From NCBI GenBank assembly GCA_008632985.1, contig QPGO01000211.1:62001-118227 (forward strand): DNA of 56,227 bases, in the 5' to 3' direction. Made by a program: the position numbers and the translations under genes. This DNA is from Psammoneis japonica. Taxonomy: Eukaryota. The notes beneath the pieces were generated by a model. The model was not told the origin of the DNA, ran no database searches, and saw only the letters and a list, made by a program, of their open reading frames with translations. The number at the start of each line of letters is the position of its first letter. Within the stretch, counting starts at the first letter, position 1. Shown here one piece after another: positions 8,577 through 40,258 of this stretch.

Positions 8577-8607
<31 letters not shown>

Positions 8608-11363: not shown

Positions 11364-11599
11364 GGTCGACTCCAATTTTTATGTGAACATCATCGCCGCG
11401 CCAGCCCAAGGCCAAATTTTTGAATCCTTTGTTTCGCGCCTTTTTTGCTTCCAAGTGACAGATCATAAAAAGCTTAGAATGCGAATATTATTATATGATG
11501 TTTCGATTGCGTCAATGTCGTCATTGCAAGTTGGTTCGGTGCTTCGGTCGAGCAGGTGTGGGGCCGGCCTACATCACCGCTTGTGATAGATCTTACCTA

Positions 11600-13290
11600 C
11601 CTGGTTTGTCGGGGGAAGCTGCTGCCCCCTGTGACCGTGTGCAACGGTGCTCATCAGCCAGTGGCACTCCCAACATGGGAGGTCTGTGATGTGTGAGCCA
11701 GTGGCGCCCGTGCCAAAGAGACATCCTCAGCCAGCAGGATGTGCTGCTGGTGAAATGACACATGTTCACACCAGGCGGGCAGTTGGAACAAAAGACCCTT
11801 GCCCCCCCCTGCAACCCTCCTCCATCTCCAGCTGGTCTCACACCAGCTGCAGAGGACAGCAGCCAATCTGCTCTTCTGCAGTGCGCAGACAGTGATTGCA
11901 GATCTAAAGTTTTTTAACACTGGCGGCAGGTCCAGCCAATTGACAAGTGGCCCACAGTGACAAAATTTGCTGCCAGTGCCTGCCATGTTTTGACCCAGTG
12001 CCCTCTTTTTGTTGCAAAACACAGTGGCAAAATTGACTCTGTTCCGCCCAGGTTGATGCCCAGATGACAAAGAACAGCTTTGCTCTGGCTCGTTCACGAA
12101 GTTTTGCTGTGCACACTTTTTTCATGATCCGTTGCCCTTTGAAGCAAATTGTTCCAACCTCAGCTGCCAAATCTTGTGTGGCAACTGAGACAAGCAAAAG
12201 CAGCTGCAAGCTTTCCCTTTTCTCTCAAATTTTCAAGGGTGGTTGCAGGCTGAGCATTCCTCCATGTGAGTTGCCCAGTTTGTGAGGGGGGCAACGATGT
12301 TCCCAAATTCCCAATGAGTTTGATTTCGGCAGGCTCTCGGCCCATTGCTCTTGTTGTTGTTGGGGTGACCATGCCGCTTTCACACACAGGACAATGCACA
12401 AGCAAGCTCAGCAAGCTTGACCTTTGAGGGTGTTGGATGCTGTTGAAACAGAGAATTGCCAGGTGTTGTTGCAGAAAAAGAAGATTAAACATGAAATGCA
12501 CTGGCGAGATGAACAAGCATTTGCCAGATCTTAACTTTTGTGCCAGGAGCCACAGCTCACTTCTGTGTGCTGCACAATGTGTGATGTGGTTTTTTCCAAC
12601 ATGCCAGCATGATGAAACTTGACTGGACTGTGAAACATGCGATGCCCCAACTTGTCGTTTGTGTTGCCATCCTCACACAAGCACCTGGGTGCAATTCAAG
12701 AGATGACATGCTGATGGGATTGGCTGAGATGCAGTCACCAGGAAGCAGTGCAAAAGATCAAGCTGAGGAGAGCTCTCATCCAGTCATTCTGGAGATGGAG
12801 ATGGTGTTTCCCTGCTGCCAACGACCTGCAGATGGAGTTGGTGGGCAAGGGCATCCAAGGGCAGTTCTCCCCAACAAGAAGTGTGCTTCTTTTTCTGTTA
12901 AAAATTGCAACCTCCAAGAGTTCCATGAGTGTCTCCCTTGGGTGTGAGCATCTCATGACCAACCAATTTGCCACTCACTGGAATCCAAGAAAATGGTGCC
13001 AGCAGCCACCTCTGCAGTCCACACTCTCTGTGTTGGAAATGCACACCCATCCTCCTGTGCTTGGGTCAGCAAAGACAGCTGCCCGTTCTGCTGTCCACAA
13101 GCTGCCAATGTTCTCGCCTCAATGCAGTGATTCTAGCCACCACCCCATTTGAGAGCAGCAGACCGTTTTTGGCTGTTCCAGCTTGGCCGGGCGATTGCGT
13201 CAACCGCAGAATCATTGCCACTATGGCCACAGCATTGCACAGCTTGTGTGAAATTTTTGAGTGGAGAAATGAGGCCTGTTCATGTGTCAT
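11600..13290. repeat. TpA-void, CpG-poor tract (probable decayed TE remnant)
   Basis: Six TpA in 11601-13200, all in YTAR context; no intact ORF; termini not identified. Confidence 0.6.
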
Positions 13291-13427
13291 TGTAAAGTTT
13301 TTAAATGTAGGCAGCACCTTGTTGTGCCAACAAATTAAGAACAGAGACTAAACTGACACGGGACCATCGTAGAAGTCGGCACATCTGGAACCTTCATCCA
13401 TTGCACGGATTGAAGAGCCATCGATGT

Positions 13428-16400
13428 CTAAAGATTCTGTGTTCTCGGGAAAGCACCACAGTGGAAAGCACATGTCTTCCGCAAATTTTTGTGCCATTCC
13501 TTAGTGCTGCGAAAGCGTGAATCCAACGTAAGAAAGGACAAGTCATCAGATTCCATGGAGGTTGTAGAACGAACCGTCACGTCGCTCAAGGGCACACCTG
13601 TTGGAGACTTCTTGTAAACAAGAGGTGGGCACATTCCCGACTCTGCAGGTTTTTCAGGTTCTATGCAAGGTTCATTCTCAAGAACAGTCGAGAGCGGTTG
13701 TGGTTTTACCGGGCCCTTTCGACGAGGATTCAACGATCCAACAGAAGTCAACCACTTGCGCATGCTTTTTCTGCTTTTACTCCCGTTCCTCGCGTCTCGT
13801 TCGGAATTTTCCTCTACCTCGTTGCTTGGTGAACTTTCGATGACGACTTCTACAGGTGCACTTGACATGAGATTCTTGGTGCTGCAGACTTCTGAAATCT
13901 CATTCGACGATGATTTCTTCGCAGTGGACGATGAAGCCACACCTCCCCGAGAAATGTCATTGCCTGTTGTGCATAAAACGGTGCCTTTTCTGGCATTTGC
14001 GCCATCTGCACTTGGTGTGACATCGATGCCAAACTCACACAGACCTGCCGTTGTGTCAATTTGTTGCACCGAGATGTTCTGCTCCTTGAGATGAGAAGAG
14101 TTGTCGTCATGAACCACCCCAAGCGCAGTGGTGTCAACAACTTCGCCGCGGTCAACCTCAAAGCCAGATTTGGGGAAGGTTGTGGTGGAATGGTGGTCAT
14201 TCGTCTGATTGTGCTCCCCCAAATCACCCCGGGAAATGCTTTTCCGTTCGTTTGATGCAAACGCATCATCACCCACAACGGAAGTGGGACCATTGCGCGC
14301 AGTTGAGCCAGTGCCTGGCTGGTCCGAATCTTGCGAACCAGGGCGAGTAAAACACTGGCTTCCGTTGCTTGCCGATTCGGCGTCGCGCCCAGAACTGAAC
14401 GACATTGAATCCAGATTAGCTTCTTTAGCTGCGCCGAGTGGTACGGAAGAAAAGAAGCCGTCGTAATCGGACTCCTGTTGCTCCGATGATTTGTCCGCTT
14501 TGGCCGGTGCAGCTTCGTCACCTAGAGAATTGCCATGGTTCGCGGTGCATTCAACAACCTCATTGCTTGTGGGAACATCTGCGCCATCGACACTTGGCGT
14601 GATGCGTGGAGCTAGTGACTGGTCAGGCCCCTGATCAGAGGCCTCGTGAATCTTGGGCTTAGCACCGTCGTCTATGTCCTCTCCAAACGCAACACCATCA
14701 TCGCGGTCAATCTCAAAGCAAGCTTCGGGCAAGCCTGTTGAGAACTTGTCATTTGCATGGTTCAACTCAGCTACATCACCCCGGGAAACGTAACTCCATT
14801 CGATTGACTCAAGCCCATCATCATCCATGACGGATGCAGGACCATCTGGGGCAGCTGAGCCAGTGTCTGGCCCTTGCGCACCAGGCAGAATTAAAGCAGA
14901 CGCAACCCGCTGGCTTACTTTGCCTCCCGCCACTGAGGCTTCACACCCAGAACTGAACAAAAAGGAACTCACAACGGCTTTTTCAGCTGCGCCCAACGGT
15001 GTGGAAGCAGAGACTTCATCATCCCCAGACTCCTGCTGCGATGATTCCTTCGGGCTGGGCGATGCAGCTTCGTCACCCTTGGTCCTGCCGCGGTCTGTTT
15101 CAGCGACATCATCCCTCATTTTCACATCTGTGCTGTCGACACTTGGTGTGATGTCGATGCCAATTTCGCATGAAGCTGGTGAATGGTCAATCCGCTCCAC
15201 AAGGGCGCTGCACTTCTTGGGATTGTAGCCATGGTCGTGAACCTCCGCAAGCGCATTTGTGTCGACAACCTCTTCGTCACGGCCAATCTCAAGGCCAGCT
15301 TCGGGTGTGGCAGATGCCAACTCGTTGTCATTTGTTCGATCCAACTCATCTGATGCAGCTCCCTGGGAAACGCCGTTGCGCCCGATTGATGACACCACAT
15401 TGTCGCCATCCTCAAGTGTGACATCGATGCCAACTTCACAGGGACCAAGCATCGGATCAACCCCTTGCACAGAGGCATTGTGCTTCTTGGGATTGTAACC
15501 CCCGTTGCGAACAAACCCAAACGCAGTTGTGTCGACAACCTCATCGCGGTCAACCTCAAATCCAGCCTCAGACGAGGCTGTTTCCAGCCGCGTGTCACTC
15601 GTTCGATTCAACTGAGATGCAGCTCCCTTGGTGGAGTCATTCCACCCACCATCATCAGCCACATTACCAGATGCAGCACGTGTGACCTCATCCGTGTGTG
15701 CACCGGCGCTGTTGGACACTCCAATGTCTGAATTGCTTGGCTCTTGAGCGTTCAGGTTGGAAAACGCCGTTGCAATCCATTGACTTAATCCACTCATCTT
15801 CAGTGATTCGTCACTTGACTCATGCGCGTTGCCTTGCGGTGCAATTGGCCCCGTGGTGCAATGGGCTTCTGATGGGCTTGTTTTCGGTGATTTAAATCCA
15901 GACAGCACAGTTGCAAGCCATTGATTTTGTTTGCTGGCATGCCAGGATTCAATGCTGTCATCGACAACCGGTGACGAGTAAATTTCGTCTGAAGCTTCGT
16001 GTCCTTTTGAGATTTGCAGCAAAGCCCATTCATCAACTTGTTTGTTCACTCGTGTCGCGCTTTCATGAGCGTTGCCTTGTGTTGCACTTGGCCGCGTGGC
16101 GTTGTGGGCTTCTGACGGGCTTGACTTCGGTGATTGAAGTCCAGACAGTGCAGTTGCCAGCCATTGGCTCTGTTTGCTGGTTCCCCAGGATTCAACGTCT
16201 TCATCGACAACTGGTGCCGAGTGACCTTCGCCAGGAGCGTCATCTCCTTTTGAGATTTGAAGCAAAGCCCCTTTATCACCCTGTTTGTTCGCTCGCACCG
16301 TGTCCTCTTGCGCTTCCTTTTCCAAAGCAGAAGGAGTTTCGGACGCACTTGGTTCTGGCAAACGATGCGTCTTGTCTGCTTCTTGACCCGCCTCAGTCTT

Positions 16401-18490
16401 TTCAAACACAGGACCAATGATGTTGGGGAACAGCTTGGACATCATTGAAGACGGAGCAGTCTCCTCCTTTTCTTCGGTTGGTTCAATGTTCTTGACGATG
16501 CTTTTCGATTTAGACGCAGTGATCTTGCGTCGGGCTTGCACCGCTACGACAACCTCTGCTTGGACAAAGAGCTTTGCAATTCCACTTGATCTCATTCCCC
16601 TGCAGTCAACACCATTTGTGGCCAACAACTCGTCACCGGCCTTCAGAGTTTTGGAGAACATCCCACCTTCGATAACGCGGGAAACCATCAATTGTCCACC
16701 GGAAATTCTCTTTACAGAAATGCCACTTTTGGACGTCTTGGCTTCTTTGAGGGCAATGGCTGCGATTTTCTGGTGGGAAGGTTGATCTTCGGGTTCAACA
16801 CGGCTTGGATTCACTGGATTGCCCAAAGGCGGCGCTCTGCACGATCCAAGTCTTGCCAGCGACTTTGATCCAAAAGAACGCATCTTTGATCGTTTCTTCA
16901 GCAACATCTGGAGCGATTCATTGCTGCGCTCAATCTTGAGCCCCTGATTGACTTCCATGGAGTTCACTTTGCCACTTGATTTCGAGCCATCATCGCCCAC
17001 AATCGTGTCGGGCGCCTTCTTTTTCTTCCACCTAAAAGACGACCTTGCTCGAAATGGGAGAATTCCCCGTTCTGCCTGTGCGGAGCTTGTTGCGAATCCG
17101 AATCGATCACAATTTCGTGTCCCGCCGCATCAGCAAGGCGGTCGAATTCACCATCCCGTTTCGGCTGAGATGTGTTACGAGATTCGTCTTCCTCGCTCTG
17201 TCCTCCGCTCGCCTCTACCGGAGCATCACTCTTGTCAGTGTCGCTTGGTCCTTGGCTCCCAGAAATGCCTTGGTGAACGCTCGCTTCAACACCTTCATCC
17301 AAGACACATGGCTTGTCTTTGGACGTCGCAATGGCTGCGGTTTTCTGGTGGGAAGAGTGATCTTCGGGTTCAACATGGCTTGGATTCGCTGGATTGTCCA
17401 AAGACGGCGCTCTGCGCGATCCAAGTCTTGCCAGCGACTTAGATCCAAAAGAACGCATCTTTGATCGTTTTTTCTGTGACATCTGGAGCGATTCATTGCT
17501 GCGCTCAATCTCGAGCCCCTGATTGACTTCCACGGAGTCCACTTTGCCACTTGATTTCGAGCTGTCATCGCCCACAATCGTGTCGGACGCCTTCTTTTTC
17601 TTCCACCTAAAAGACGACCTTGCTCGAAACAGGGGGATTCCCCGTTCTGCCTTTAGCGGAGCTTCTTTCGAATCCGGATCGATCACAATTTCGTGTCCCT
17701 CCATGTCATGAAGGCGGTCGAATTCACCATTTCGTTTCGGCTGAGATGCACTGCGAGATTCATCTTCCTCGCTCTCTCCTCCGCTCGCCTCTGCCGGAGT
17801 GTCACTCTTGTCAGCACCGCTTGCTCCTTGGCTCCTGGAAACACCCTGGTGAATGCTCGCTTCAACACATTCATCCAAGACACATGGCTCGTCTGGCTGT
17901 TGGAATGACTCTTCATCAATGTTTGACAGCTCACTGTTTGATGGAGGCTCTGAGTTCACGCTGCGATCTTTCTTCCTCTCCAAGGCAACATCCCGTTTCG
18001 GCCGAGATGCATTGCGAGATTCGTCTTCCTCGCTCTCTCCCCCGCTCGCCTCCACCGAAGCATCACTCTTGTCGGCATCGCTTGCTCTTTGGCGCCCCGA
18101 AACACCCTGGTGAACGGTTGCTTCAACACCTTCATCCAAGACACATGGCTCGTCTGGCTTTCGGAATGACTCTTCATCAATGTTTGACAGCTTGCCATTT
18201 GGTGGAGGCCCTGAGTTCACGCTTCGAACTTTCTTCCTCTCCAAGGCAACAACAACCGTCGCTTCGTTGGGCCCCTCTCCTGGTGCTTTCTCCTCCGTCA
18301 GGGGAGACGAGTCATGCACCAGGCTTTCGATCGATGAGTTGTTGCTGGTGGTCGTACGCTGCTGCATTTCTTGGGAAAGCAGAGGCCAGGTCGTCGCTTT
18401 TGTGGCGCTCAGATCACACTGAGCCCCACTCACCAAATAACAATCAACCTCCTCTACTTCCGATTCGTCGTTCCCTCCTTCAATCGTCAT
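13428..18490 (-). CDS. Large internally repetitive protein with a PDZ-like domain; one frameshift near 17078
   Basis: ORFs 16964-18490 and 13428-17000 are joined by a 1-nt deletion visible against the duplicate copy (ttctgcctttagcgg at ~17645 vs ttctgcctgtgcgg at ~17070). PDZ-like segment KSGISVKRISGGQLMVSRVIEGGMFSKTLKAGDELLATNGVDC lies at ~16520-16770. Several internal repeat modules are present. Confidence 0.7.
16760..18250. repeat. Recent intragenic duplications (about 540-600-bp and 240-bp offsets) within the PDZ gene
   Basis: KPCVLDEGVEA...ASGGESEEDESR module x3, ALERKK..SVNS..LSNIDEESF x2, and GDDSSKSSGKV...RSFGSKSLARLGS x2; near-identical at the nucleotide level. Confidence 0.9.
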
Positions 18491-18899
18491 CGTACAGCAT
18501 CAGATGAGCATCCCGCCGTCGCCGTCTGCTCATGAGTTTATGAGCTTGCCGAATAGCCGCCAAAAACCTTTCCGTTCAAGATAAATGTAATAATTCGAGA
18601 TTAATTTTAATTATAAGTTATTAACATCTATGATTACTAATAATATGATCTTAGAAAATTTTTGTCTCTATCAAAAATATAGATGAAATGTTTTTTCAAA
18701 AAAGTCATATTCCTATAAGAGCTTTAGGATAACCAATATTTCCCCCAACGTAAACCTGTCCCGGGTGGACGAACAAAGGTCTGGCTGTGCGTGCGTGGCG
18801 GCGTGGGCATCCTTGTGAGTCGTCTACCGGCACATCCGAACAAACAACAAAAATCAGCATCATTCCCACTCAAGTCTGCTCTCTGCTCTCTCTCTAGAG

Positions 18900-21050
18900 A
18901 GACTGCAGTGCAGAACCATCCCGCACCACACACACTGGCCCAGCACGTGGCACTGGAGCCATTGTCAAGTCATGAGAAGTGTTTCTGAAAACGGCCACAG
19001 ACGCCCTGGAAGCACCCTCACAAAAGCACCGCCACTCCAACAAACAGCATGAGCACGCTCCAGCATTAGAGGCGGGTGCTAAACCTGGAGGACCTCAAAT
19101 GTTGTTGCAGTGCAAGCACCAAACAGCTGNNNNNNNNNNNNNNNNNNNNNNNNNNNNNNNNNNNNNNNNNNNNNNNNNNNNNNNNNNNNNNNNNNNNNNN
19201 NNNNNNNNNNNNNNNNNNNNNNNNNNNNNNNNNNNNNNNNNNNNNNNNNNNNNNNNNNNNNNNNNNNNNNNNNNNNNNNNNNNNNNNNNNNNNNNNNNNN
19301 NNNNNNNNNNNNNNNNNNNNNNNNNNNNNNNNNNNNNNNNNNNNNNNNNNNNNNNNNNNNNNNNNNNNNNNNNNNNNNNNNNNNNNNNNNNNNNNNNNNN
19401 NNNNNNNNNNNNNNNNNNNNNNNNNNNNNNNNNNNNNNNNNNNNNNNNNNNNNNNNNNNNNNNNNNGGGGGGGGGGGGTCTTGCTTGGTGCACCAGCTGC
19501 AGAGCTCATGCACCAAATTTGGCCACCAGAAAATGGCCCACTGAGTTTCCCAACTGGAAGCTGTGCCAGGATGTGCAAGAAGTCTTTCAGCAGCAGCTGT
19601 TGTTGTTCTGTGGAAACATGTGAGATCACAACAAAATCTTGAGGAATGCACTCTGAACTTCCTCAGGACAAACACACATTTGCTGGAAAAGAGATTGTCT
19701 TCCATGTTGTTCCCAGTGCCAAGAGCCTCAAGCTGCTGTCATGACACACTGCCACCCAGACAGACACAAAAACCAGGGCTGGGTTGACAAAGGAGTTGCC
19801 AAGATCAAAGATCAAAGAATCCAAACAAAAGGCATTCAAGTGCATGTGGGAGCTGTTGGAAGCAAAAGAGAGCATTTCTAAAATTTCAAGCAAGTTTCAG
19901 CAAAAGAGGCAGTGGGGCTGTTCTTGGGGCTCTTTGGTGCATGGTGTTGCTTTTCAAAATTGCCAATGCAAACACCACTGCCCCTCAGAAGGTGCCAGCA
20001 CTTTCCCAGCAGTTCAGGGGGGCTTGACCAGCTCACACAAAACACTCGACACACATCAAAAATGAGAAGTTGAATCAAAGTGCAGGAAAATCAGACAATC
20101 ATGCAAGGCTGTGACCTGCCAGAATGCCAATGGATGACAATGGAAGTTGGGAAAAGAGGCTTCCTCCTGAGTGCTGGGAGACAGTGTGACACATCTGGTG
20201 GAACAGAACAAACAAAAAGATCTCACATGGATGACTCAAATGTCCAAAAGGTTTCTGGCTGTCATGCACAAATTTGGTCTGTTTGCTGCATCCCCTGCAG
20301 ACTCAGTCATGGGCTGGCTTTTCATTTTTTTTGTGGCTCAGGTTCTTTTGGCTTTGTGAGTGGCAGCTGAAAACACAGCTGCGCTTCTTGCGGATGGAAT
20401 GACAGCGCTTGTTGAGTTTTTGTCAGAGCGAAAGCACTGTTGTGAAGAAGTTGCAATGGAAAATGGTCGGGATGTTGGACCATGGAGCACTTGAGTTAAT
20501 CAACAATGCATGTTGCAGAGAATCGAAATTGTTCATCACACTGCATGACTCTTGCAGCTCTGTTGTTGGCTTTTTTGTCAATTTTCCTGCCATGCCCCCA
20601 GAAGGAAAAATCCCACAAGAATCTCCCAGAAATCAAAGGATTGCATCAGAAGCAGCGTGCCACAAAGCACAATGATGCCGCTGAACCAAATGCACATTTC
20701 AACGCTTGCAAGTTGTCACCTTGTGCTCTTGCTCTGCCAACCAGCACACACTGGTGCTGCTTGCAAGGTGGTGTGTTGGTTTTGACTGGGTCCTTGAACC
20801 CGAATCACAACCTGGTGAGGCTCCCTTCTCTCTTTATTCTCCTTCCTTCCATTCCCTCTCTCTTTTCCTTTTCTTCTTCTCAGTTGTCCTTTTTGCACTT
20901 CAACATCCAAATCCAAAAATCTCACGGGGGGCGCTTGAAAGCTGAGTGATGGACACCACGCACAGACGGGCGACGGACGACACGCGGCGGAAAAATCTCG
21001 TGTCGTCCCGCGAGGATGATGATGATTCATTCCAGATGATTCGCCATTCG
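18900..21050. repeat. TpA-void tract spanning an assembly gap (probable decayed TE remnant)
   Basis: Three TpA in 19467-21080; CpG sparse up to ~20900; no intact ORF. Confidence 0.55.
19130..19466. other. Assembly gap (N run)
   Basis: Run of n characters followed by a poly-G tract. Confidence 1.
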
Positions 21051-22140: not shown

Positions 22141-23489
22141 CTATTTAATCATTGAGATGCTATAGGCACTGTAAGCTTCGTCTTCTTTATGTAAGCGTCT
22201 GTCCACGTCCAAGAATGGGGGCAAATGTACTTTGGCTTGCTCGTCACCCGACGATTCGACTTGGGCGTGGAGAATGCAAATGTCAGATACAGGCTCTTCA
22301 TATTCCTGTTTCCGAGTCATAAATCATATTATTAAGGAGTGAGTTTGAGAAAGCAACCACGAGTGCGATTATATGCACTTGCAACAGGTAGATTAATCGA
22401 TTGATTGATTCTCGAAACACTTACATGAATGGAAAAGCTCTGCAAATGGTACAAGAAGCAGATTCGTCGCTGCCGAATAATGTGCCGCTTCAAGTCGCGT
22501 GTTTTGACAGCTGCGAGATACTCGCGACTGCTGATGATACGCTTCACCTCAATTTCCTTGTCGTCTTTGGTCACTTGAGCCGCGGTGAAACCATACACGG
22601 ATCCACCACGAGTGCCATCGCTTCTAATAATGGTTCGTTTCCGTACAAAGCTATACTCCTCCTTGAAGGGTGAAGAATCATCTACTTGTGCATCGACATG
22701 CACCAAGTACACCTTTTCAACTTCAAACACATGAATGTCAACACCGTGTTGTTGAACCAGCGCTTCAACGTCAGGTTTGCAGCGCAACAAGAACTTGGTC
22801 GTGACGCGTCTCAAATTGGAAGGTAGCCCAACCAGTTTGCTCACAGCATTCACCAACTTTTGTAGTTTAGGTTCAAAAGCTGTGGAATTATCAATGACAG
22901 TCAGTTTGGGGTGGCCCACCCATGCTTTTTGTGTCTTGAGATCCACTTCAACAGCTTCATCCGCAGTCTCACTTCTTGCTGCGTTATTGTCTAGCGTGTA
23001 AAACTCACGTGCTCCATTGGCTGCGGTCAACAGGTGGTACACAGCGTTGTATCGGCCCTCGCGAATATCAGTCACATCTATATTGCGGGATTCCAACAAC
23101 TGATTCCACTTGGCGGGGTCCATGTACGCCGACCCATCCATGATTCCTCGATCACAAAGCAACACGGCTGGTTTGCCACGTGCTCGGAGGACTCGTTCCA
23201 ACCCGTCTTCCATGGATGTTTGAACCGAAATGACTGTACCTTGAATGATTAAATCCATGCCGTCTGTTGAAAAATAATCGAGAGACAGTCCGTTTGACGC
23301 TAGAATCGTAAACACTTCGGGACACGTAATCACTTCAAAGCCACGCTCTCGGAGATACGACGAAACACGTTCCAACGCGGTTGTCTTTCCTCCACACGGA
23401 CCACCCGTCAACACAATTCTATAAAAAGGTGCCTTTGCACCATTGATGTTGTTCTCCGCCTCTGTTTCTTGCTTTGCATCGCCGTTCAT
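22141..23489 (-). CDS. TTD14-like P-loop NTPase (AAA_28/NadR-type) with CYTH-like C-terminal region, 2 exons
   Basis: RIVLTGGPCGGKTT Walker A, LLCDRGIMDGSAY, YTLDNNAARSET and AWVGHP. Intron 22306-22424 leads to a last exon EYEEPV...LPPFLDV...YSAYSISMIK*. Confidence 0.85.
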
Positions 23490-23758
23490 GGTGGAGTTGA
23501 TGAAGAGGGAGGACTTTCAGTTTGACACCTCATTGCCATACTATCGTACTGCTAACAACCAACAACAATTTCAACGTGTCGGTCCGTCGGGTCGATCGAG
23601 CGTGATGATTCGCGCGATTCAGTCAAATGACTCGGTGACTTGTGCAGCTTATTCGAGCTTTGCGGTTCACTCGACGACGACTCTCTAGAGTAGAGAGCTA
23701 GAGAGTAGAAGCTAAGGTCCTCTATTAGAGGGGCACCAAAGGCCATCTGAATGGATTC

Positions 23759-24233
23759 GCTGGAGCAGCTCTGGCGTGGGAGGTAAATTACCTTGCTCTA
23801 AAAAAAAAAAAACCTGCTGGTGCTTCCAGGCACACTCTGCCGCAGCACTTTTTGCGCTGCACCACATCATTTTATCATTTTGCACCACAAAGAGCTCAAC
23901 TCCTGCTGCACTGTTTGCTGGAGCAGCTCTGGCATGGGAGGCAAATCACCTTGCTCTAAAAAAATCACCAGCAACCTGCTGGTGCTTCCAGGCACACTCT
24001 GCTGCAGCACTTTTTGCGCCACACCACACCATTTTGTCATGTTGCACCACAAAGAGCTCAGCTCCAACTGCACTGTTTGCTGGAGCAGCTCTGGCGTGGG
24101 AGATAAATCACCTTGCTCTAAAAAAATCAACCTGCTGGTGCTTCCAGGCACACTCTGCCGCAGCACTTTTTGCGCTGCACCACATCATTTTGTGTCGTTT
24201 TGCACCACAAAGAGCTCCAATCCAACTGCACTG
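23759..24233 (+). repeat. Tandem array of three ~160-bp units at the start of a TpA-poor tract that runs to ~24780
   Basis: Units start gctggagcagctctggc at 23759, 23917 and 24079. Confidence 0.95.
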
Positions 24234-30260: not shown

Positions 30261-30708
30261 GATCCGAGCATGGACTCTGCAAACCGCCGCTTCGGACTGG
30301 ATCTCGAACGATCCTAGTCAAGAACCACTGAGAAGTGACAAAACATTGGGGCACTTAGGAGACTCACAGAACAGAGCTTTCGGCACAAGCTCTGCTCCGC
30401 ACAAGGGGGGACGGGAAAAACCCAAACCCTCCGCAGGGTCCTGCACCAGCACAGGGGCTCTTCCGGAAAACCAACGCAGCACTGATGCCTCGGGCGTTTT
30501 CGAGGGCCAAACTCTAGCATCGCACCCTTTGGCATTTTGCGACATTGGGTGCAAACTAGAGTGCAATCGGCCAACTCGAACGAAGACACGCCAGACCAAG
30601 TTTTCCCGCACGAAAGCCAAAGCTGTCGAAGGTGTTGTGCTGCACAGTTGTCTTGGACCTCGTCTCATCGACTCCCGAGGCCCAATGAGATGAGTCGAGC
30701 TCCAATCC
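30261..30708 (-). repeat. Split direct repeat B2 (3' terminus)
   Basis: About 447-bp direct repeat of 30973-31419. Confidence 0.95.
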
Positions 30709-30727
30709 AGGGTGTGGGGGGTGGGCA

Positions 30728-30973
30728 AAAAAGAACAATGCTTTTCCGAGCTTGAGTGATCCAGTCACGTTGATCAGGGTTCCTGTTCCAACAAAGCTGG
30801 AAAAGTGAGAGAAGAGAAGACCGAAGTTTGACCGGTCACAGTCAGGAGACTAGACCAAGTCATCTTGAGTCGGAAGCACCCTGCTTCCGACATGGATTGA
30901 GCAAGGGGTCACAGTCACCAAGCGGGGTTGGCTTGAGTCAGTCCATCTCCATCTAAACTTGGGTGCGAGGAGG
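30728..30973 (-). repeat. Split direct repeat A2
   Basis: 246-bp direct repeat of 40013-40258. Confidence 0.95.
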
Positions 30974-31419
30974 ATCCGAGCACAGACTCTGCAAACCGCC
31001 GCTTCGGACTAGATCTCGAATGATCCCAGTCAAGAACCACTGAGAAGTGACAAAACATTGGGACACTCAGGAGACTCGTGGAACAGAGCTTTCGGCACAA
31101 GCTCTGCTCTGCACAAGGGGGGATGGGAAAAACCCAAACCCTCTGCAGGGTCCTGTGCCAGCACAGGGGCTCTTCCGGAAAACCAACGTAGCGCCAATGC
31201 CCAGGGCGTTTTGAAGGCCAAACTCCAGTGTCGCACCCTTCGGCATTTTGCGACGTTGGGTGCAAACTAGAGTGCAATCGGCCAACTCAAACGAAGACAC
31301 GCCAGACCAAGTTTTCCCATGCGAAAACCCAAGCCGTCAAAGGTGTTGTGCTGCACAGTCATCTTGGACCTCGTCTCATTGACTCCCGAGGCCGAACGAG
31401 ACGAGTCGAGCTCTGATCC
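30973..31419 (-). repeat. Split direct repeat B1
   Basis: Direct repeat of 30261-30708, abutting A2. Confidence 0.95.
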
Positions 31420-31532
31420 CCCCGATGAGAATCCTGGGCAGTGGCCACCAAACATGATGATCCAGAGAGCAGGAGGATGGAGGACTGCTCTCCGGGGACC
31501 TGACGTCACCAAGGGCTTGAGACCATCCCAAA

Positions 31533-33199
31533 TCACATGGCCTTGGTGCAACGCAGGAATGAGGGTAAAAGAAGGGTGATGTCGGCACAGTGTTGCCGCA
31601 TTTTATGTGTGGGCCGTGCCGCCCCCGACCTTTCCTTCTTTTTCCACCGGTTGATGACATCAATGTCATCTTCCGACACCTTTTGAGCAATGGCACGTGA
31701 GTCAGATCCCCTCCTGAACAACCAACTCACATCACATTTGTCCTGCATGTCAGTGAGGGAAGTGATGTCTGCTGCGAATGAGCTTGGGTGGTCATCATGG
31801 ATGTCTCCCAAGACTTCATGCAAGAAAGCGTTGAGCTCTTTAGTGGACAGGGACCTGTCCATCCACATTTGATGTCGCTGGTCCACGCGTTTGCCGATGA
31901 CCCCAGTGCAGTGAGATTGCTGTTTCCACCCAAAACCGAAGGTTGACACCTGAGCTGGCAACGTTAACACTGGGGAGGAGGAGGCGGCCGCTCCCCATGC
32001 TCTCCCTTCACCCGGCCTAAAAGAGGGACCACAACACACTCCGCATGTCTTGGCAGATGTTTGACCACAGCACCCAAGTCTGTGAGCAAACCTTCGGGGC
32101 CCCGAAGGGACAAGACGTAGCTTGCTGCAAAGTGCAATCTGCATGTGAGGTGCACAAATCTGTCCGCCTCCCCGGGGGCTCAAAGAGCCTTCTCCTCGAC
32201 CCGAGGCAAAAGATGTTGCATGACATCCACTGATGTCGCCCTGTCGGGCCTCCAGTCTTGACCCATCCGTCTCTTGCACCCAGTCATAAAACGTTGGAAC
32301 CACAGCGAGGCTCGCGGGTCCTCGCATGTCCGAAGACACAGTTTTCCTTCCAAGTCCCCCAATGCTAAAGCACGTGAGTTCGCCTGCGCTGAAGCGCGCA
32401 CCTGATTGGAACAAGCGGCACGCAATTTTCGGATTGTGTCAAACTGGGTGCAGGACTCCAAGTGTTTCCCCGCAGCCGTCAATGCCAAGATGATCTGCAT
32501 CGCGACCTTGCACCCACAGTGATCACAGGGCGGGAGAGGACCTGGTTCGAGGTGAGGGCCTGTCAGGCCCAGACGCTCGGATGAGACTGGGCCCCTTCCA
32601 ACTCTCGATGCATTTGCTTCAACCATTGTTGACTCCCTGCTCCAAAACGCGTCCAAGATCACCCGTCGAACACAGGCCAAGGCAACCTCGTCCCGAGGTG
32701 ATGATGGCAAAGGTTCCCTCTGGTGTGGCTTGTGAAATGCACAGGAGTCACACTCAAACGCCACCATGAGATGATCTCCTGCTCGAGCCCGCACGAATTT
32801 GTTTTTGTCGTGCGGCTTCCGATGCCACGCATTGTCGTCCAACCTTGGGCGGTCCGCCCTGAGCATTTGCGCATCGTCATTTTGAGGGTCGTCCGCCAGG
32901 GTCCCTCCTGGATAGAAAGTCACGCTTTCTCGCGAAGCACAACACCCTGGACACCACACCTTCCGACATGCCGGCCAGATTCCTGCATTGTGCACAAAAT
33001 TTGTGCAGAACATTCCTTTCGTCCACCGTAGCATCCGGCCACACTTGTCGCAAGGACCGGTCCATGGCACACATTTTTGGGGTCCCCCGAAGCTGCCAAG
33101 GGCTGCAGGAAACAAACAGAAAAAGGAGGCTGATTGGCAAGGGCTCGAACACATCACCTGGCCAGAACGGTCTTGATCCAGCCGGAATGGTGAACACAA
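31533..33199 (-). pseudogene. Tyrosine recombinase of the retroelement (frameshifted)
   Basis: ARAGDHLMVAFECD, ILDAFWSREST, QFDTIRKLR, KRRMGQDW, FRRGSDSRA, IDVINRWK and MRQHCAD (position of the catalytic Tyr), spread over two frames. Confidence 0.85.
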
Positions 33200-36050
33200 G
33201 GTCCGCCGCCTTGCACAACTGCTTCTGCCACTCCGGTGTCATTAACGTGGGCAGATGAACATGTGAAAAGATGTCTGACATTTGATCCTCGTGATCCGGA
33301 GCTCTTCCAGGGCCATTCTCGCCGCGGCTGGGGGCCGGGCCCAAACCCAAGTGCCTGCATTGAAACAGGGCATTTCGATTGCCTTGTGATCTGGGTGACT
33401 CCATCCCGCAATGTCATGTCCCTTCTGACACCAATCCAAGGGGGTCAGCAGCTCCGGAGGCGGGGCACCAGCCCAAGATCAAACCCACGCGAGGAGAGCA
33501 GGCGACCAAGCTGTGGCTCCGAGATGGAGAGGGACAAACGACAACATCTTGGCTCCGTTCATAGCCCCTTCGGACAAGACTCCCCTGGAGACTCCATCCG
33601 TGCCCTGAGCTGTCATCCGCCCCCCCCGAGACGTGCATGAGGCACAGCCTAATCCCACACTTGGCCTCTAAAGATTTCAACCAAACAATCTGCTCAAGCA
33701 GGAGGGGACTGGAAGAGGCACCCTTGTGCCATGCCATCTCGGCAACCGAGTTGTCCATAAAGAAGAACAAGCACGCGCCGGTCAATTCCCCCTGCTCTCC
33801 AAGTTCCTGGATGGCATCGACCGCATTGGACAATTCCTTCCAGTTTGATGAGTTTCCTGGTTCGTCCTCGCCCCACACACCAATCCAAAAGATGATTGTT
33901 CCATCCGATGCTTCCAGGGACGTGCCGAGGCCTTTTCTGGATGCATCGCCAAAACCGCAAAGGACAGCGACGATTTTTGAAGACCTGATGATGACCGCAG
34001 CAGGGGTCGGAGACTCCACAATGCGGGACACAGCTGTTGGGTCCATAAAAAGACGAGGGACCGCCTTGACCTGCTGAGGTGGCGGCTGATCCCTTAGCCC
34101 ATCTGCAACCTCTGACGGGTCTGGGCCCTGCTTCTCAGCAAGATGATGAATCCAACTCGTGAACTCTTTTGCCGTCATTGCCCAACCATCCTCCTTTCGG
34201 TTTGGGTGCCACGAGTCAAGGGTCAAATGGATCCCTTTCAAGAGTGGTGTTAGAAAAGAGTGAGTCATCGCAAGGTGGACCAGAAACCCCCGCTTCCACT
34301 CCAGATCCTTGAAATTAAAAGTGGGGAGAAAGCCCTCCGGCCAACCAGCATGACAACCAAGCAAATCGGCAATGATGACCTTGGCTTTGTCCCATTTGGC
34401 CTGAGCAACTGACTGGGTGACATCCCCATCGATAACTCGGAAGATGGCGCCAGCCCATGCTCTGGTTTTCACCTGAGAAGGGGGGGGCGCACCTTTCGGG
34501 CAGCGTTCTGGAGACCAAGATGCTGCAAGCGGGAGGCCATTTGGTGAGCCACTTGCCATGAGGATTCCTCGCTTGCCCCCATTCCCCGCAAGTCATCCAC
34601 AAATGTTTTGATGTCCCCAGCAATTTCCTGGCGACGCAAATTCCACTTCATGACAAACGGTTTTTCCACCTGGAAATTTGGGTCACCCGGCAAGTTTAGG
34701 ACCAGCTTGTTGTGCCCCGCAATGTTGGAGACTCGTTTTGGATCGCCTCGGGCAATCTCATTGGCCCAACAGAATGCCCGCACCGCCAGGTGAGGGCTGG
34801 GATGCATCCCCACAAACAAACGGTTCCAACACTTGAACCAGAGTGGGCCCGCCGAGACAGGCTCCAGCGACAGGAGACACGCCTTGAGCGGAGTTAAGGC
34901 AATCACACAACGAGCTGATGGATGGCAAGACGATTGGACTTTCTGAATTTTTTTTGTGCTGGAAACTTCGTGCGCGCTACACGCATCATCGCTGAAAATC
35001 GGCGACATGACGGTGGTGTGTTGTCATGACGACAACGATGACAGCGACGTGTCCCAGAGTCTTTTGTCATCACAGACATTTAGTTTGTTAAGTTTGAGAA
35101 TGCACTCAGTCATGAAAGTCCCCGAGAGCAATCTCCGTTCGAAAGCAAAACGTCACGCCAATGCCGAGCTCTGTTTTCCGACCTGTCACTGTTGTGCATT
35201 CATTGTTGACGATTGAGACTTTGTCAGGCGGACTTTCTGTGCATGTGCGTGTTCCATGCAGTGCAATTGATCATTGTGACAAGTGCCCATTTCAAAGTCG
35301 TCCTGTGTGAGCTTGAGAAAAATGCCATTGTCATCGTCGGCGTCGACGGCAATTTGTCGCGCAAATCGCAAAAAATGCACGACTGTCATCTGTCTGACAT
35401 TGCGCTGCTGTGCGCTTGTTGTGCGCATGCCTTAAGTCAATCCCCGCATGTGGCCGGATGTTGGGATCCATGAAAAAATTTAAGAACATGTCGCCCAGAT
35501 CGAGGTCCACCGAAAATGTCGAATGGGTCATGCACCCCAGAACTGACGCGGGAGTGGGCAAGAAAAAGGAGGGGGCCCACAGGGCATCATCCAACCCAGA
35601 AGAAGTGCCATTGTGAACCATTTGCATGTCCTTGACGATCTCCACCAACCGACCATTCTGGGGTTCCACTCGGACGGTTTTTGGGACCCAGAAACAATCT
35701 GTTGAGCTGATCACCCCACCTCGATGGATGCAACCTTGGTCTTGGACCTTTTGCACTTTGTCCGCCATCCTGCCAATCTCATGCTCTGAACCCCGAATTC
35801 GCTGGCATCGGCGATTGCGAGGGAGGGGACCTTTGACAAAAATCTGGATCCCATCCCGAGCCCCAACCCACTGTTCCAGAGTGGGCCATCGCCAAAATAG
35901 AAGGGATGAACCTCGGCCCCAGCTCCACCATGAACTGCCCAATGCTTGTGTCAACACATCCGCCCCAAGGTGTGCGTCAAGCAGCAAGGATGGGAGTGGA
36001 GGGTGGCGACAAACCCCCCCTGAAGATGCCCTGTAGCATCCCCAAAATGC
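32877..36050 (-). pseudogene. pol: reverse transcriptase, RNase H and DIRS-type MT-like domain (frameshifted, MITE-interrupted)
   Basis: RT motifs DLDLGDMFLNF, WNRLFVGMHPSP and KTFVDDLRG; RNase H motifs GFGDAS, SSNWKELSN and FFMDNSVAE; then WVWARPPAAA...FICPR/LMTPEW. Confidence 0.9.
34898..35431. mobile_element. 534-bp MITE-like insertion in RT, flanked by TTAA
   Basis: TTAA at 34894-34897 and 35432-35435; imperfect TIR GGCAnnCRCACAACRAGC; removal restores the frame AGIDL|TPLKAC. Confidence 0.9.
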
Positions 36051-37203
36051 CGACGTTGTGCAGCCAACATGGCGTCCCACGTCAGCCCATGTTCCCGGTG
36101 CAGGCATGCTAGAAAGGACCGAAGAGTCCTCCACCGCCACCATCGGTGGGCCAAGTCCCGAAGGGCAGGTAAAACCTTTCCAAACCCCGGGAAAACCAGA
36201 GCAACCCGCTTGTCCCAAAGCCGAAACGGAGGCGCCGCTGCATCACCCTCAGTGGCTTTTGCAGTCATGAGAGACACGTCAATCCATGTGTGCGGCAAAT
36301 GCCGCCGAAGCCCTGGCAGCCAAGTCCCAGCCCCACGAAGCGGAGCTGCGGCCACCGTGTCTCCACCAACCACACGCCCAGGTCGCGACGATTCCCGGGG
36401 TGTGTGATCAACGAACGCCTCCACAAAAAGAGTGAGAAGATTCAACGGGACCAGTGAAAAACCATGCTCGAAAGCGCGATGCACCTGAGGCGTGCGGAAA
36501 TGCAAAGGGAAATCCCAGGCCGCCAATGTCTCATCCACAGAGAGTGTGCGGGAGACCCAACCTGTCACAGACTGATGAGACGGGTGCACGACCGGTCGAT
36601 TCAAAAACTGAGGGTTGAGGTGGTTGGCCTCCATGTAAAAATCACCACGGGGGTGTTGGGGTGATGGCGACCCGGGGAGCTTGCAATCAATGATGTGCCC
36701 GATGGACCGTCGCAGCCCACCGTCAAAAATCAGCGTGGGTGCCCCTTGCCAGAACAGGGTCGTTCGGAAGAAAGTGACACCGCCCACCACCGCATGTGCA
36801 ATGTCCCGTCGCTGGAGCTGGTGCAGTCCCAGGAGGCTTGGTCTTGAAACCGCTCCCACAGGGATCACAATCAAGGGTGCCGACCGGATGATGTGCACTG
36901 CGGATTCAAGGAATGAGGGTGGCCCCGACACAAACACAATGTCAACCCGGACAGCGAGTTGTCCCACACTCGTCCAAGAGACCCGTGCCAAGGAGGCACC
37001 CAACTGGCTCTGGAACAACTCCACCAACAGGGGATTCCAGTGGGAGCTGGAGGTGTCATCGCAGCAGCAGCAAAGGACAAAAGCCAAATTGGGGGACCGG
37101 AAGCAAGAACCAAACAAGTTCCTTGAAATGAGAAGGCTTTTCGGCCCCGCATGATGTGCCTCAGGTTGGCAGGCCCATCAACAGAGACCTCACCCTCCCA
37201 CAA
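35951..37203 (-). pseudogene. Degenerate C5-cytosine methyltransferase-like domain at the N terminus of pol
   Basis: VDIVFVSGPPSF (motif IV-like, no Cys), HAVVGGVT..R (VIII-like), RSIGHIID and RTLSVDETLAAWDFP (IX-like), in canonical order. Confidence 0.5.
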
Positions 37204-37224
37204 TTCTTCTGCTCCCCATGGGCT

Positions 37225-39999
37225 TCACTTCTTGTTCTCCAGAGCCTTGAGTCGGCGAGTCAGGTCCTTCACCTCCCCGTCCGCAATTTTCCCAGCTCCA
37301 CGTGAGCCGCATCGCCTCGAGCCTGGGCTGATTTTGCCTCTGAGCTGGCATTTTTGGCTTTCTCCGTCAACGTCAGGACAGTGGATTGCAAATCCGTTGC
37401 CACTTCGAAACCTGAATTTGTCACGAGGAACTTGACACATTCCGACGCCATCGAGGGGTGACCGACGAACCCCAGAGACGTGTGCTCCACCATGATGTCC
37501 TGGGTTCGAAACACCACCCACAAAATTTTGCTGCACACTGCGTCTGGGTCCGTGCCCGAAATGGAGGTGAAGACCCCTGAGCGCGCCTTGTGAATGTCCT
37601 CGAAGATGCGGTGAGTCAATTTGGTGGTCAAGGACCATGCTTGCTTCTTGGAGAACTTGCTCAGATCGGTGAGTGACGCGCAAGTCGAGTCCATGAACTG
37701 AACCAGTGCCCGCAAAAAGGCAACCGTTCTCCGTCGTGGCGATCTTCCCTTCGATGAAGTGCTTTGTCCCCACATTCCCAGATGACCAATGTTCGTGAGT
37801 CTTGACCTCATCCAAGTGGGAGGGATGCAACCCCAAGGTCTGAGTCGATTTTGCAGATCCTGAGTCGAAGATTCAAGGCATGCGGCATTGAAAACCCGCC
37901 AAGGTTCGCGCATCTTCCTCAGTCGCGATGTTCACACTCATTCGCTTTGCCCACTGGGATGGAAAGTGGTGCAGGGCCGTTGGCTCGATTCCTTTGATCC
38001 GATCCAAGAGTGGGACGGTCAAACATCCACAAGCCTGCGACGGGAGAAGTGTTGCGTCATCCACGCCTGGCAATCCTCGTAGGACGATGCGCCGACCCCC
38101 GAGAACTTGACAGCTGATTTATCCGATTTTGCGCGTGGCTCGCTCAGACGCGTTCCAGGTCTAGGTGGGACCTCGCACCACTGAACTGTGACATCGACAG
38201 TTTTTTGAATCACGTCATGTGTCGCGCACGTTGATTTCTACGTGATTTTTTCGACATTTTGTGTCATTTTACGGTGCACTCATTGAGCGATCCGTCCAAC
38301 TGCTTTTGACATTTTTTGTTACAGCGCGATTCTATGATGTCTCGAGAATCGCGCAGGGAAGGCGCACTTGCAAAAACGTCGAGTGGCAAGAGGCATGATT
38401 GTGCCACAAACTTGGCCGTTCATTTGATGTTGAAGACAAATGTGTCCATTGATTAAATTCTCGTACAATGGAGCTCGCACGTAGAATTCTACGGGCCCAA
38501 TGTCACACGGAGTCCCCCACCTGGGGCTGGAACGCGTCCTCACTGCCTGATCCAGTCGGGTGAGCCGTGCATCCACAGATCCTTGGTCATGCGAAACACC
38601 TGGTGGCGAGAACCCCGCGGCTCCCTGTGACTCCAACGACCTCACCTTTGAGGCCAACTGCATGCAAACCCGAAGCATGTTTCTCTTCAAGTTTTCCAGG
38701 TCCATTCGGCTCGCTGTGGATCCCATCTGGTCTTGCATCCCTTGGAACTTCTCGTTGAACGTTCTCACAAGACGGTTGGATTGGCTTCTCCAGCCCATTT
38801 CCACTTGCGTGATGCGGCCCACAAGGTCTGTAGATGGAGTTCCAGTTTCCCAAGATGCCACGTTTGCCAAGGTGCCCCATGGCGTGGGCGCAAGGAGAGC
38901 CTCGTCAAACCCCTGAGTCGGAGTCCCGAGAGACGCATCGAGTTGGTCCAGTTTGCGGCTGAGAATGTCAACCATGGACTCTGCAGCATTGGAGCGCTTT
39001 CCGGCCTTGTCACCCAGTTTGGCTGGAACCTCTCCAACTTGCCGCAGTCCATCCTTGGTTGATTGCACAACCTGAGCCAACACAGATGGGCTCTCATTCG
39101 CCGCCAGGAACTGAGCAGGAGTGGAGAGAATTTGTTTTTCATGTGGAATGAACCCCTCCAGGACGGCGTCTTCGTGAAGGGAGGCAGGTTCTGGCCACTC
39201 CTTGTGAGCCGGTGTCTTGAAATTGGCCACCCTTTCATGCTCCTTCAGAGCTGGTTCAACCTCGTCCTCAGTGAAAAAGGGAGGTTCACCGTTGGATGGC
39301 ACCAAGAACTTTTGCCGCCATCCGGCTGGGGTGTCTGACTCCGGTTCCCACTTAACTGACACCTCGCCCGACATGCTTCCTCCATCTAGGATGGGTTGAC
39401 AAAACCCCACATCCGGTGACTTGAGAATTGCTGCCATCCCCGCCGCCAGGATGTTCATCCTTCCACCCTTGTGCTTTACATTGCACTCACTTGCCTTCTT
39501 GAGGCAGAAGGTGGCGCCCCCGCCCTTGATCCCTGAGCATCGAGGTGCGCCAGTCGTCTCCAGCCAGGTGATCCGACAACGAGACACGTGCAAGGACAAA
39601 GAAGACGCACCTTCCTCAAGCATGCTCCAAATGTCACCCGCTAAATCCCGCCCAAAGAAGCCCACCCGAGAGGAGTGAGCTTCCCTCTGAAATGTGTGGG
39701 ACGCGTCTCCTTCCAAAACGTGAGTTCCTGGAGAGTGGGAAATGACTTCCCCCAACTCCGCCCTGTCAATGTCCGATTGGGGATGACTGTAACCCCCCAA
39801 AATGTCCTTGCTTGCACCTCGGGGATTTGAGCCCTCATGACCCCCCCCCCCCCTGTTGCGCAGCCCCAGAGGGGCGAGCCTGAGGAGAGGGAGCCGCAGG
39901 AGAGCTCGACGAGAACGGCGAGATGACATCAGACTCCAGCTGATGAGCCAAATCGACGAACGCATCATCAGAGATGCCCTGGGCAAAGAAATCTGACAT
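37225..39999 (-). pseudogene. gag-like ORF1 (frameshifted, MITE-interrupted)
   Basis: Starts at ATG 39999 just inside repeat A1; Cys/His cluster RCSGIKGGGATFCLKKASECNVKH and coiled-coil segments; positioned upstream of pol. Confidence 0.75.
38147..38538. mobile_element. 392-bp MITE-like insertion in gag with 4-bp TSD CTCA
   Basis: TIR GACGCGTTCCAG(g/c)(t/c)C(t/c)AGGTGGG at both ends; CTCA at 38143-38146 and 38539-38542; removal restores RLDQAV|SEPRAKSDK. Confidence 0.92.
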
Positions 40000-40012
40000 G
40001 ATGAGAGAGACT

Positions 40013-40258
40013 AAAAAGAATGATGCTTTTCCGAGCTTGAGTGATCCAGTCACGTTGATCAGGGTTCCTGCTCCAACAAAGCTGGAAAAGTGAGAGAAGA
40101 GAAGACCGAAGTTTGACCGGTCACAGTCAGGAGACTAGACCGAGTCATCTTGAGTTGGAAGTACCCTACTTCCGACATGGATCGAGCGAGGGGTCATAGT
40201 CACCGAGCGGGGTTGGTTTGAGTCAGTCCGTCTCCATCTAAACTTGGGTACGAGGAGG
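40013..40258 (-). repeat. Split direct repeat A1 (5' terminus)
   Basis: 246-bp direct repeat of 30728-30973. Confidence 0.95.

Follow-up and report, generated by a model that had tools for sequence, protein, structure and literature searches.

TpA depletion in a repeat-rich PDZ-domain gene and adjoining transposon-like DNA of the diatom Psammoneis japonica points to local DNA hypermutation

The stretch of DNA analysed here is a 56,227-nt window of Psammoneis japonica contig QPGO01000211.1, and all coordinates are positions in this window. It is gene-dense eukaryotic DNA with a single N gap (19130-19466), and includes a gene for a bifunctional aspartokinase/homoserine dehydrogenase whose named best relatives are all from diatoms, with 53-57% identity (other matches reach at most 62%). 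Our subject is a minus-strand locus, a probably frameshifted PDZ-domain gene rich in tandem repeats, that is strongly depleted of the dinucleotide TpA (TA), as are a 10-kb retroelement-like unit and several transposon-like islands nearby (Table 1). The coding sequence is divided between a 5′ reading frame of repeat modules and a 3′ reading frame that contains the PDZ domain, for which the Pfam match lies above the cut-off (E = 3.1e-06, 27.9 bits). A HMMER search of a library of 1.8 billion proteins with the 3′ frame yielded 44 relatives (best E = 6.3e-18), all of which align to the PDZ part alone, and no orthologue of the whole gene was found among them; a word-index search with residues 1-500 gave no match at E <= 0.001 among proteins of 678-2158 residues. 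The two frames meet where one repeat copy has a 1-bp gap relative to the other, near 17080. No intron signal is seen there in the sense-strand sequence, and the gap may be either a true frameshift, which would make the locus a pseudogene, or an assembly error.

Self-comparison identifies the PDZ segment, two short linkers and both gene ends as the unique parts of the gene. The youngest repeats are tandem duplications of 575 bp and 261 bp, and the first 170 bp of the 261-bp repeat are present in a third copy at 17149-17318. An older duplicate pair and still more diverged repeats lie toward the 3′ end. Compared with the window, an independent contig carries an additional T after positions 13485 and 11987; the one at 13485 falls in a T run within the final 20 codons of the long open reading frame (ORF), where it would change the C terminus.

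The TA depletion is most extreme in a 701-bp gap between the TA at 17654 and the next at 18355. An earlier note on this DNA, made from the letters alone, had reported that no TpA occurs in about 17656-18354 although CpG is abundant, and the counts bear this out: the segment holds 0 TA, 45 CG, 53 TG and 52 CA, with 34.2 TA expected from base composition or 22.7 from the density of 32.5/kb in 17 control ORFs, for which the Poisson probability of finding none is 1.4e-10. The gap ranks third in the window, after gaps of 1444 bp (36636-38080, within the 10-kb repeat unit) and 799 bp (over the N gap), and in the TA-normal DNA of the window the longest TA-free gaps are 172-183 bp. The note had placed the effect at 17040-18354 and in duplicated parts. 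The TA-free run does lie inside that interval, but the depletion covers 4.6 kb of the gene body, unique segments included. In the control ORFs TA occurs at about 32.5-32.9/kb, an observed/expected ratio (o/e) of 0.51, and CG has an o/e of 0.98. The TA ratio within the gene domain is graded from 0.25 on the 3′ side to 0.00 on the 5′ side and then jumps to 0.81 upstream, with a CpG o/e of 0.83-1.03 in the segments spanning 16753-18251; between the domain and the island to its left, at 13001-13749, the TA o/e is 0.30-0.32. For the whole window the TA o/e is 0.42 and its distribution is bimodal, with ordinary genes near 0.5 and sharply bounded islands at 0.0-0.2 (8300-9250, 11500-13000, 13750-18250, 18750-20750, 23750-24500 and 29250-40000).

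This depletion exceeds what the encoded protein and its codons predict. With the protein kept fixed and synonymous codons drawn from the 17 control ORFs, 33.7 ± 4.8 TA are expected in the 5′ frame and 118 ± 9 in the 3′ frame, and 6 and 35 are seen (ratios of 0.18 and 0.30); the change is one of the DNA, not of codon or amino-acid choice. The shortfall is largest at codon boundaries, where the 5′ frame has 4 TA vs 25.9 expected and the 3′ frame 14 vs 86.3; the same test applied to each control ORF gave ratios of 0.52-0.94. Tyrosine makes up 0-0.5% of the gene's protein vs 2.3% otherwise, and histidine and cysteine are not enriched; the suggested drive from Tyr to His or Cys does not show in the composition.

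Table 1 Features of the Psammoneis japonica window that bear on TpA depletion (window positions).
Feature	Position	Strand	Remarks
5′ reading frame	16964..18367	-	ATG 18367-18365, stop at 16964; acidic Ser-rich repeat modules
3′ reading frame, 1233 codons	13428..17129	-	PDZ domain (~16557-16751) and older internal repeats
1-bp gap, repeat copy 1 vs copy 2	17078..17082	-	alignment column 328; frame shifts between the two ORFs
575-bp tandem duplication	16753..17894		copies 16753-17318 and 17328-17894, 90% alike; TA o/e 0.10
261-bp tandem duplication	17725..18251		copies 17725-17990 and 17986-18251, 88% alike; 0 TA in 17895-18251
Older duplicate pair with EIY/EGH site	15820..16295		15820-16052 and 16063-16295, 81% alike; TA o/e 0.12
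Old internal repeats	14015..15631		67-71% alike; TA o/e 0.18; 14/33 listed version differences
TA-free run	17655..18354		TA at 17654, next at 18355; 701-bp gap
TpA-erased domain over gene body	13750..18355	-	4.6 kb; TA 7.6/kb, o/e 0.14; CG o/e 0.89
TA-rich upstream spacer, sharp 5′ edge of domain	18368..18750		29 TA in 383 bp, o/e 0.81
Flanking island, read as old transposon relic	11500..13000		TA o/e 0.06, CG 0.22, TG 1.81, CA 1.68; YpR 236/kb
Flanking island with N gap 19130-19466	18750..20750		TA o/e 0.02, CG o/e 0.14
Retroelement-like unit, 10 kb	30261..40258	-	split direct repeats; same signature; TA o/e 0.11
Split direct repeat	30261-30708 + 30973-31419	-	90% alike
Split direct repeat	30728-30973 + 40013-40258	-	94% alike

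The repeat copies record how TA was lost. They differ by transitions at pyrimidine-purine (YpR) steps, with TA or CG in one copy set against TG or CA in the other. Between the 575-bp copies there are 56 differences, of which 44 are transitions, and nine TG-versus-CA doublets, vs 0.46 expected and a maximum of four in 5000 simulations; the 261-bp pair has four doublets vs 0.36 expected. Such doublets arise when one ancestral TA (or CG) is resolved independently in each copy. At the first site cited in the earlier note the triplicated modules (17149-17318, 17725-17894 and 17986-18155) indeed have TA/TG/TG, and at the second they have TA/TG/CA; the occurrence of TA, TG and CA at one site across three copies indicates a TA ancestor. 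Its EIYSSP versus EGHSAP pair is likewise present, as TAC versus CAC on the sense strand. Relative to the controls, the gene has lost 25 TA per kb and gained 20 TG+CA per kb, and the sum of TA, TG, CA and CG stays at 229-238/kb throughout: the controls have 238, the gene 234, the 30.3-40.3 kb repeat unit 229 and the relic islands at 8350-9250, 11600-13000 and 19480-20750 have 231-236. This conserved sum, in which lost TA and CG reappear as TG and CA, implies conversion in place, by transitions. The mutational signature of the gene (transitions, doublets and a conserved YpR sum) is the one found in the transposon-like DNA of the window, as had been claimed for it. As a test of transcription coupling, TG and CA were compared by strand, and their differences were no larger than the spread among the controls. 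GC-biased gene conversion was considered as a cause and rejected, since loss of TA would by itself raise GC by roughly the ~3 points seen and the changes keep to YpR steps.

The copies also date the loss. From the nine doublets, two TA/TG sites and one shared TA, the 566-bp unit is back-calculated to have held ~21 TA when it was duplicated, or ~37/kb vs 32.5/kb in the controls (~27/kb if some doublets are CG-derived). TA density was thus normal at that time, and the erasure there therefore postdates the duplication; judging from the copies, most of the erasure in the gene is later than both the 575-bp and the 261-bp duplications. By the same back-calculation each copy has since lost ~90% of its TA and ~10% of its CpG, so that TA loss is ~10-20 times faster per site. 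CpG content is near normal in the gene (o/e 0.89 vs 0.98) because CpG loss is so much slower.

We compared the window with contigs, rather than reads, from public sequencing of the same strain. Differences between the two versions are counted as listed in this comparison, in which under-reporting is possible at 16813-17599. They number 33 inside 13325-18826 (5.5 kb), vs 0 in four flanking contigs that cover 6454 bp and at most 2 in 8623-13324 (4702 bp, with two relics inside; 2 of the 24 mismatches of that contig have no listed place), and are counts from contigs, not rates. The relic island at 19467-20750 has 0 differences from an independent contig. All 33 are transitions and 32 fall in YpR steps (P = 4.5e-10): 15 set TA against TG or CA, 11 set CG against TG or CA, six sites form three TG-versus-CA doublets, and one (18166) is an A-to-G change outside YpR. 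With paralogous copies as outgroups, three sites polarise as TA loss and four events as CpG loss, and the ancestor was CG at 15953, 17854 and 16080/1. The earlier description of the process as separable from CpG deamination, with CpG intact, accordingly holds for rate and content but not for the spectrum, in which a third of the version differences are of CG type. The codons that changed are evenly divided between synonymous (14) and non-synonymous (14), and the outcomes show no steering toward synonymous changes. Over 13336-16003 the spanning contig alone lies on the gene; therefore no diverged second gene copy is evident, within the limit that contigs cannot give copy number.

The signature extends to the 10-kb unit and shows there that duplicated copies need not be eroded alike. 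One of its split-repeat pairs has 43 differences, 40 of them transitions, with eight doublets (0.52 expected), and the other has 14, all transitions. The 5′-terminal copy (40013-40258) keeps TA or CG at 9 of the 10 polarisable sites at which the copy at 30728-30973 has TG or CA (P = 0.02), and erosion therefore depends on position in the unit, not on duplication alone. Homologues of the unit's ORF occur in Cylindrotheca/diatom data, with normal Tyr and normal TA. At 80 metagenome loci that encode relatives of this ORF the TA o/e is 0.47-0.80; it falls below 0.3 in 1 of their 1508 1-kb windows, vs 36% of 1-kb windows here, and Tyr makes up 2.0% of the relatives' proteins vs 0.3% of the unit's protein. 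Because the relatives are TA-normal, the erasure is not intrinsic to the element family. Just three conserved Tyr columns are available in the unit's protein, now L, C and F, too few for an inference about Tyr to His or Cys. The layout of split repeats recalls the DIRS-order (PAT/Ngaro-like) retroelements, to which the unit may belong; Pfam gave no match at E <= 0.01 for the ORFs of the unit, and two homologues have sub-threshold RVT_1 matches only (E = 0.03 and 0.22).

From these observations, we consider, with a probability of about 0.72, that the locus undergoes local DNA hypermutation of TpA to TpG or CpA and that erosion has gone furthest in the TA-free run. TpA would be turned into TpG or CpA according to the strand hit, the same process would have removed TpA from the retroelement-like unit nearby and from the older transposon-like relics, and CpG in the relics would additionally have decayed to TpG or CpA. 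The chemistry could be adenine deamination at TpA on either strand, as proposed for the chlorarachniophyte alga Bigelowiella natans (Mettrop et al., bioRxiv 10.64898/2026.01.13.699255), and the base changes suggest that ordinary deamination of methylated CpG runs alongside. The locus may be targeted because the cell marks this DNA for silencing, and tandem duplications are one of several candidates for setting that mark. As far as repeat copies and contigs can tell, the conversion occurred in place and after the youngest duplications, and appears to be recent or ongoing in the gene.

Several observations weigh against this interpretation. At 17886 and 17940 parsimony gives TG to TA, the opposite direction, although such apparent gains of TA could be parallel erasure in the paralogues. 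The two versions, known from contigs, may be alleles, subclones or time points. Of the 33 differences 11 set CG against TG or CA, and for one of the three doublets the paralogue reads CG, which departs from the TpA-only signature of B. natans; either two processes act in one domain or a single process acts more broadly on YpR steps. Finally, the foreign or selfish character of the B. natans targets is shared by the 10-kb unit and the relics, but the gene has a PDZ domain of diatom type and no hallmark of foreign origin was seen in it.

The closest known case is the TpA-only hypermutation of viral inserts in B. natans, described in a 2026 preprint. In mutation-accumulation lines, 230 of 231 mutations in viral inserts were TpA to TpG or CpA (210/211 in a region derived from a nucleocytoplasmic large DNA virus (NCLDV) and 20/20 in a virophage region), at a rate ~1000 times the background (Mettrop et al., bioRxiv 10.64898/2026.01.13.699255). 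The NCLDV region is present as a single copy and is transcriptionally silent, clusters poor in TpA and rich in CpA+TpG occur elsewhere in the genome, and the authors propose an unproven ADAT2-like adenine deaminase and draw an explicit analogy with repeat-induced point mutation (RIP) (bioRxiv 10.64898/2026.01.13.699255). The Psammoneis locus has in common with this case TpA to TpG or CpA transitions on either strand, sharp confinement at a level orders of magnitude above the flanks, a lasting footprint of depleted TpA and gained CpA+TpG, and raised diversity within one strain, and reverse-transcriptase and DDE-type coding sequences are among the TpA-depleted ones there. It differs in its host (a diatom rather than a rhizarian), in its targets (not viral inserts but a retroelement-like unit, relics and a PDZ gene of cellular type that bears tandem repeats), in the CpG transitions that occur in the same domain, and in that rates were measured in mutation-accumulation lines there and are inferred from copies and contigs here. 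It is best grouped with this process, from which it departs in host lineage, target classes and accompanying CpG transitions.

What attracts the process is a separate question. One possibility, less likely than not but somewhat ahead of the others, is that targeting follows a silenced or aberrantly transcribed unit, duplicated or not, guided by RNA or set by chromatin, and that the process starts at the unit's 5′ end and runs through and past its 3′ end. The gene and the 10-kb unit, both on the minus strand, are each sharply bounded on the right (5′) and diffusely on the left (3′); therefore targeting of a transcription or silencing unit fits at least as well as homology sensing. In the 10-kb unit erosion is milder in the 5′-terminal repeat copy than in the internal one (9 to 1), unique DNA embedded in the gene domain is erased too, and the extra CpG transitions in the gene suggest transposon-like methylation. 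The NCLDV target in B. natans was also single-copy and silent, and an RNA-guided or epigenetic trigger is discussed in the passages of that preprint cited here. Against such targeting, the pattern comes from two units only, the diffuse 3′ edges may reflect adjoining older relics, and TG against CA shows no clear strand asymmetry.

Duplication itself, which the earlier note took to be the trigger, is somewhat less probable. RIP-like sensing of homology between the 575-bp and 261-bp copies would mutate TpA in, between and beside them, and RIP is known to leak into linked unique DNA. The order of events agrees with this, in that erasure postdates the youngest duplications, and so does the gradient, with TA lowest in the youngest repeats (o/e 0.00-0.10) and rising with distance toward the 3′ end. 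The single-contig relics show at most 2 (8623-13324) and 0 (19467-20750) differences vs 33 in the repeat-bearing gene, and the retroelement-like unit likewise has direct repeats. However, the unique segments of the gene are about as depleted as its repeats (11 TA in 1026 bp vs 24 in 3592 bp; o/e 0.18 vs 0.12, P = 0.19), and 14 of the 33 version differences lie in repeats that are merely 67-71% alike. The domain is also lopsided, with a TA o/e of 0.81 upstream of 18368, just 117 bp past the last repeat, and depletion for more than 3 kb downstream. Equally duplicated copies of the 10-kb unit were eroded unequally (9/10 sites, P = 0.02). In the gene at 24836-26947, a same-sample contig matches 26434-26931 with 71 mismatches in 498 bases (86% alike); a diverged paralogue therefore exists elsewhere, and yet this stretch keeps normal TA. 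The NCLDV target of B. natans is a single copy, and large duplications, in the passages of the preprint that deal with them, are not said to be hypermutated. Duplication as the trigger is thus not shown and somewhat disfavoured. A more specific proposal, that diatoms have a homology-sensing defence that deaminates adenine at TpA as a mirror image of RIP and acts on tandem duplications in genes as well as on transposons, is unlikely on present evidence. If it were true, new duplicates would soon be rewritten without stop codons but with wholesale amino-acid change, and evolution by gene duplication would be both limited and redirected.

Passive spread from the flanking relics (11.5-13.0 kb and 18.75-20.75 kb) into the host gene between them is improbable. 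The gene is indeed sandwiched by two TA- and CG-depleted islands, and the promoter and 5′ end of a channel gene (29250-29700) are TA-poor beside transposon-like DNA. However, spacers with more TA part the gene from both islands, with an o/e of 0.30-0.32 on the left (13001-13749) and 0.81 on the right (18368-18750), the islands hold at most 2 current differences vs 33 in the gene, and the deepest depletion lies far from the left island. Selection, whether for avoidance of UpA in mRNA, for preferred codons or for an acidic repeat protein low in Tyr, is very improbable: coding DNA of the window is TA-poor in general (o/e ~0.5) and the gene's protein is low in Tyr, Leu and Ile, but the depletion surpasses the protein and codon prediction five-fold, chiefly at codon boundaries, changed codons are not steered to synonymous outcomes, neither TG/CA doublets nor locally raised diversity is predicted, and relics outside coding sequence carry the same signature. 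An artefact of misassembly, or of a modified base at TpA misread in sequencing, can be given as little weight: the two assemblies possibly come from the same short reads and repeats are difficult to assemble, but the TA-free relic islands agree between the window and independent contigs, strand-dependent misreading would give TG/CA ambiguity at every such site, and sister repeat copies hold fixed, different outcomes.

The hypermutation that we favour resembles RIP in Neurospora and other fungi in producing transitions only, at specific dinucleotides and on DNA, and in affecting transposons, tandem duplications and linked unique DNA. In RIP, however, C:G changes to T:A, mostly CpA to TpA, so that TpA is enriched, GC is lowered and stop codons are made. 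Here TpA is destroyed, GC rises slightly and TAA and TAG stops vanish. The TpA enrichment of RIP is absent, with a TpA o/e of 0.02-0.14 even in the oldest islands and with CA and TG enriched. In this respect the likeness to RIP that the earlier note drew is not supported: TAA and TAG are removed and stops are not created, and duplicates are therefore not inactivated in the manner of RIP. Dependence on homology defines RIP, and is one candidate trigger only in the present case. DNMT4/RID-like genes are found in many diatoms (Hoguin et al. 2023, PMC9998398).

The CpG changes resemble the decay of 5-methylcytosine known in methylated transposons of diatoms (PMC9998398), with CG going to TG or CA most strongly in the islands. 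Both the CG-ancestral sites in the gene and the CG o/e of 0.14-0.22 in the relics fit such decay, and would imply methylation of this DNA. Deamination of 5-methylcytosine cannot remove TpA, and in the gene TA loss is far ahead of CpG loss. Among other deaminases, metazoan ADAR hyperedits repeat-derived double-stranded RNA from A to I, read as A to G, and prefers a U/T on the 5′ side. The change from A to G with this 5′ preference and the use of repeats as substrates are alike, but ADAR acts on RNA, whereas the changes described here are fixed in DNA and are not the same in the repeats of a single inserted element or in the two versions of the locus; to our knowledge, ADARs do not occur outside animals. 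AID/APOBEC enzymes deaminate cytosine in a targeted manner in defence or diversification, and AID starts sharply near the 5′ end of a transcription unit. Targeted deamination and, for AID, the sharp 5′ start recall the present domain, but the base is C rather than A and the sequence contexts are other.

In the literature searched we found no report of TpA hypermutation in a diatom, and the B. natans preprint, in the text available, mentions no diatoms. TpA-targeted DNA hypermutation appears to have been described once before, in that preprint, for integrated viruses of a chlorarachniophyte. The present window provides sequence-level evidence for a TpA footprint in a diatom, over a retroelement-like unit, old relics and a cellular-type gene, and adds signs that the process is active at present, together with repeat copies that can serve as an internal clock. 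It would place such a process in a second major lineage of marine algae, where it would be able to reshape a host protein. The locus is also a concrete test case for what the process recognises, whether duplication, silencing or transcription.

There is a practical consequence as well. Long ORFs occur in several frames on both strands of the TA-erased DNA, such as one of 298 aa antisense to the gene (17611-18507, plus strand), and similar spurious ORFs are numerous in 11.5-20.7 kb and 29-40 kb. They arise because TAA and TAG have been lost and TGA is the only stop left, are not evidence of genes, and may mislead annotation by spanning six frames.

Other parts of the window deserve brief description. 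Twelve consecutive G, up to 19478, adjoin the N gap of 337 bases in the right flanking island, and independent contigs break at both places, which suggests a gap in short-read assembly bordered by a poly-G read artefact. A tandem array of ~160-bp units occupies 23756-24238, and from there to 24674 same-sample contigs pile up to a summed depth of 715 vs ~61 elsewhere. The repeat family at 23756-24674 is therefore present in many copies; it is poor in both TA and CG. The chloride-channel-like gene on the minus strand (ATG near 29374) has a TA-poor 5′ end and upstream region, with ~6 TA in the 480 bp of 29250-29730, adjoining TA-free transposon-like DNA at 29731-30315, and may illustrate erosion reaching unique host DNA. 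One sequencing run, X2, which is labelled 'DNA?', skips 119 bases (22304-22424) with CT..AC ends inside a minus-strand AAA_28 gene, as from a spliced intron, and X2 may therefore be RNA-derived. This run covers neighbouring genes with spliced joints and does not cover 13336-20672, which is evidence neither for nor against expression there. Two overlapping minus-strand ORFs at 46821-49489, rich in Ser, Pro and Gly, have the lowest observed/expected TA of the controls (0.52-0.55) and use 1 and 3 NTA codons vs 12-15 expected; they are probably a milder case, attributable to codon choice.

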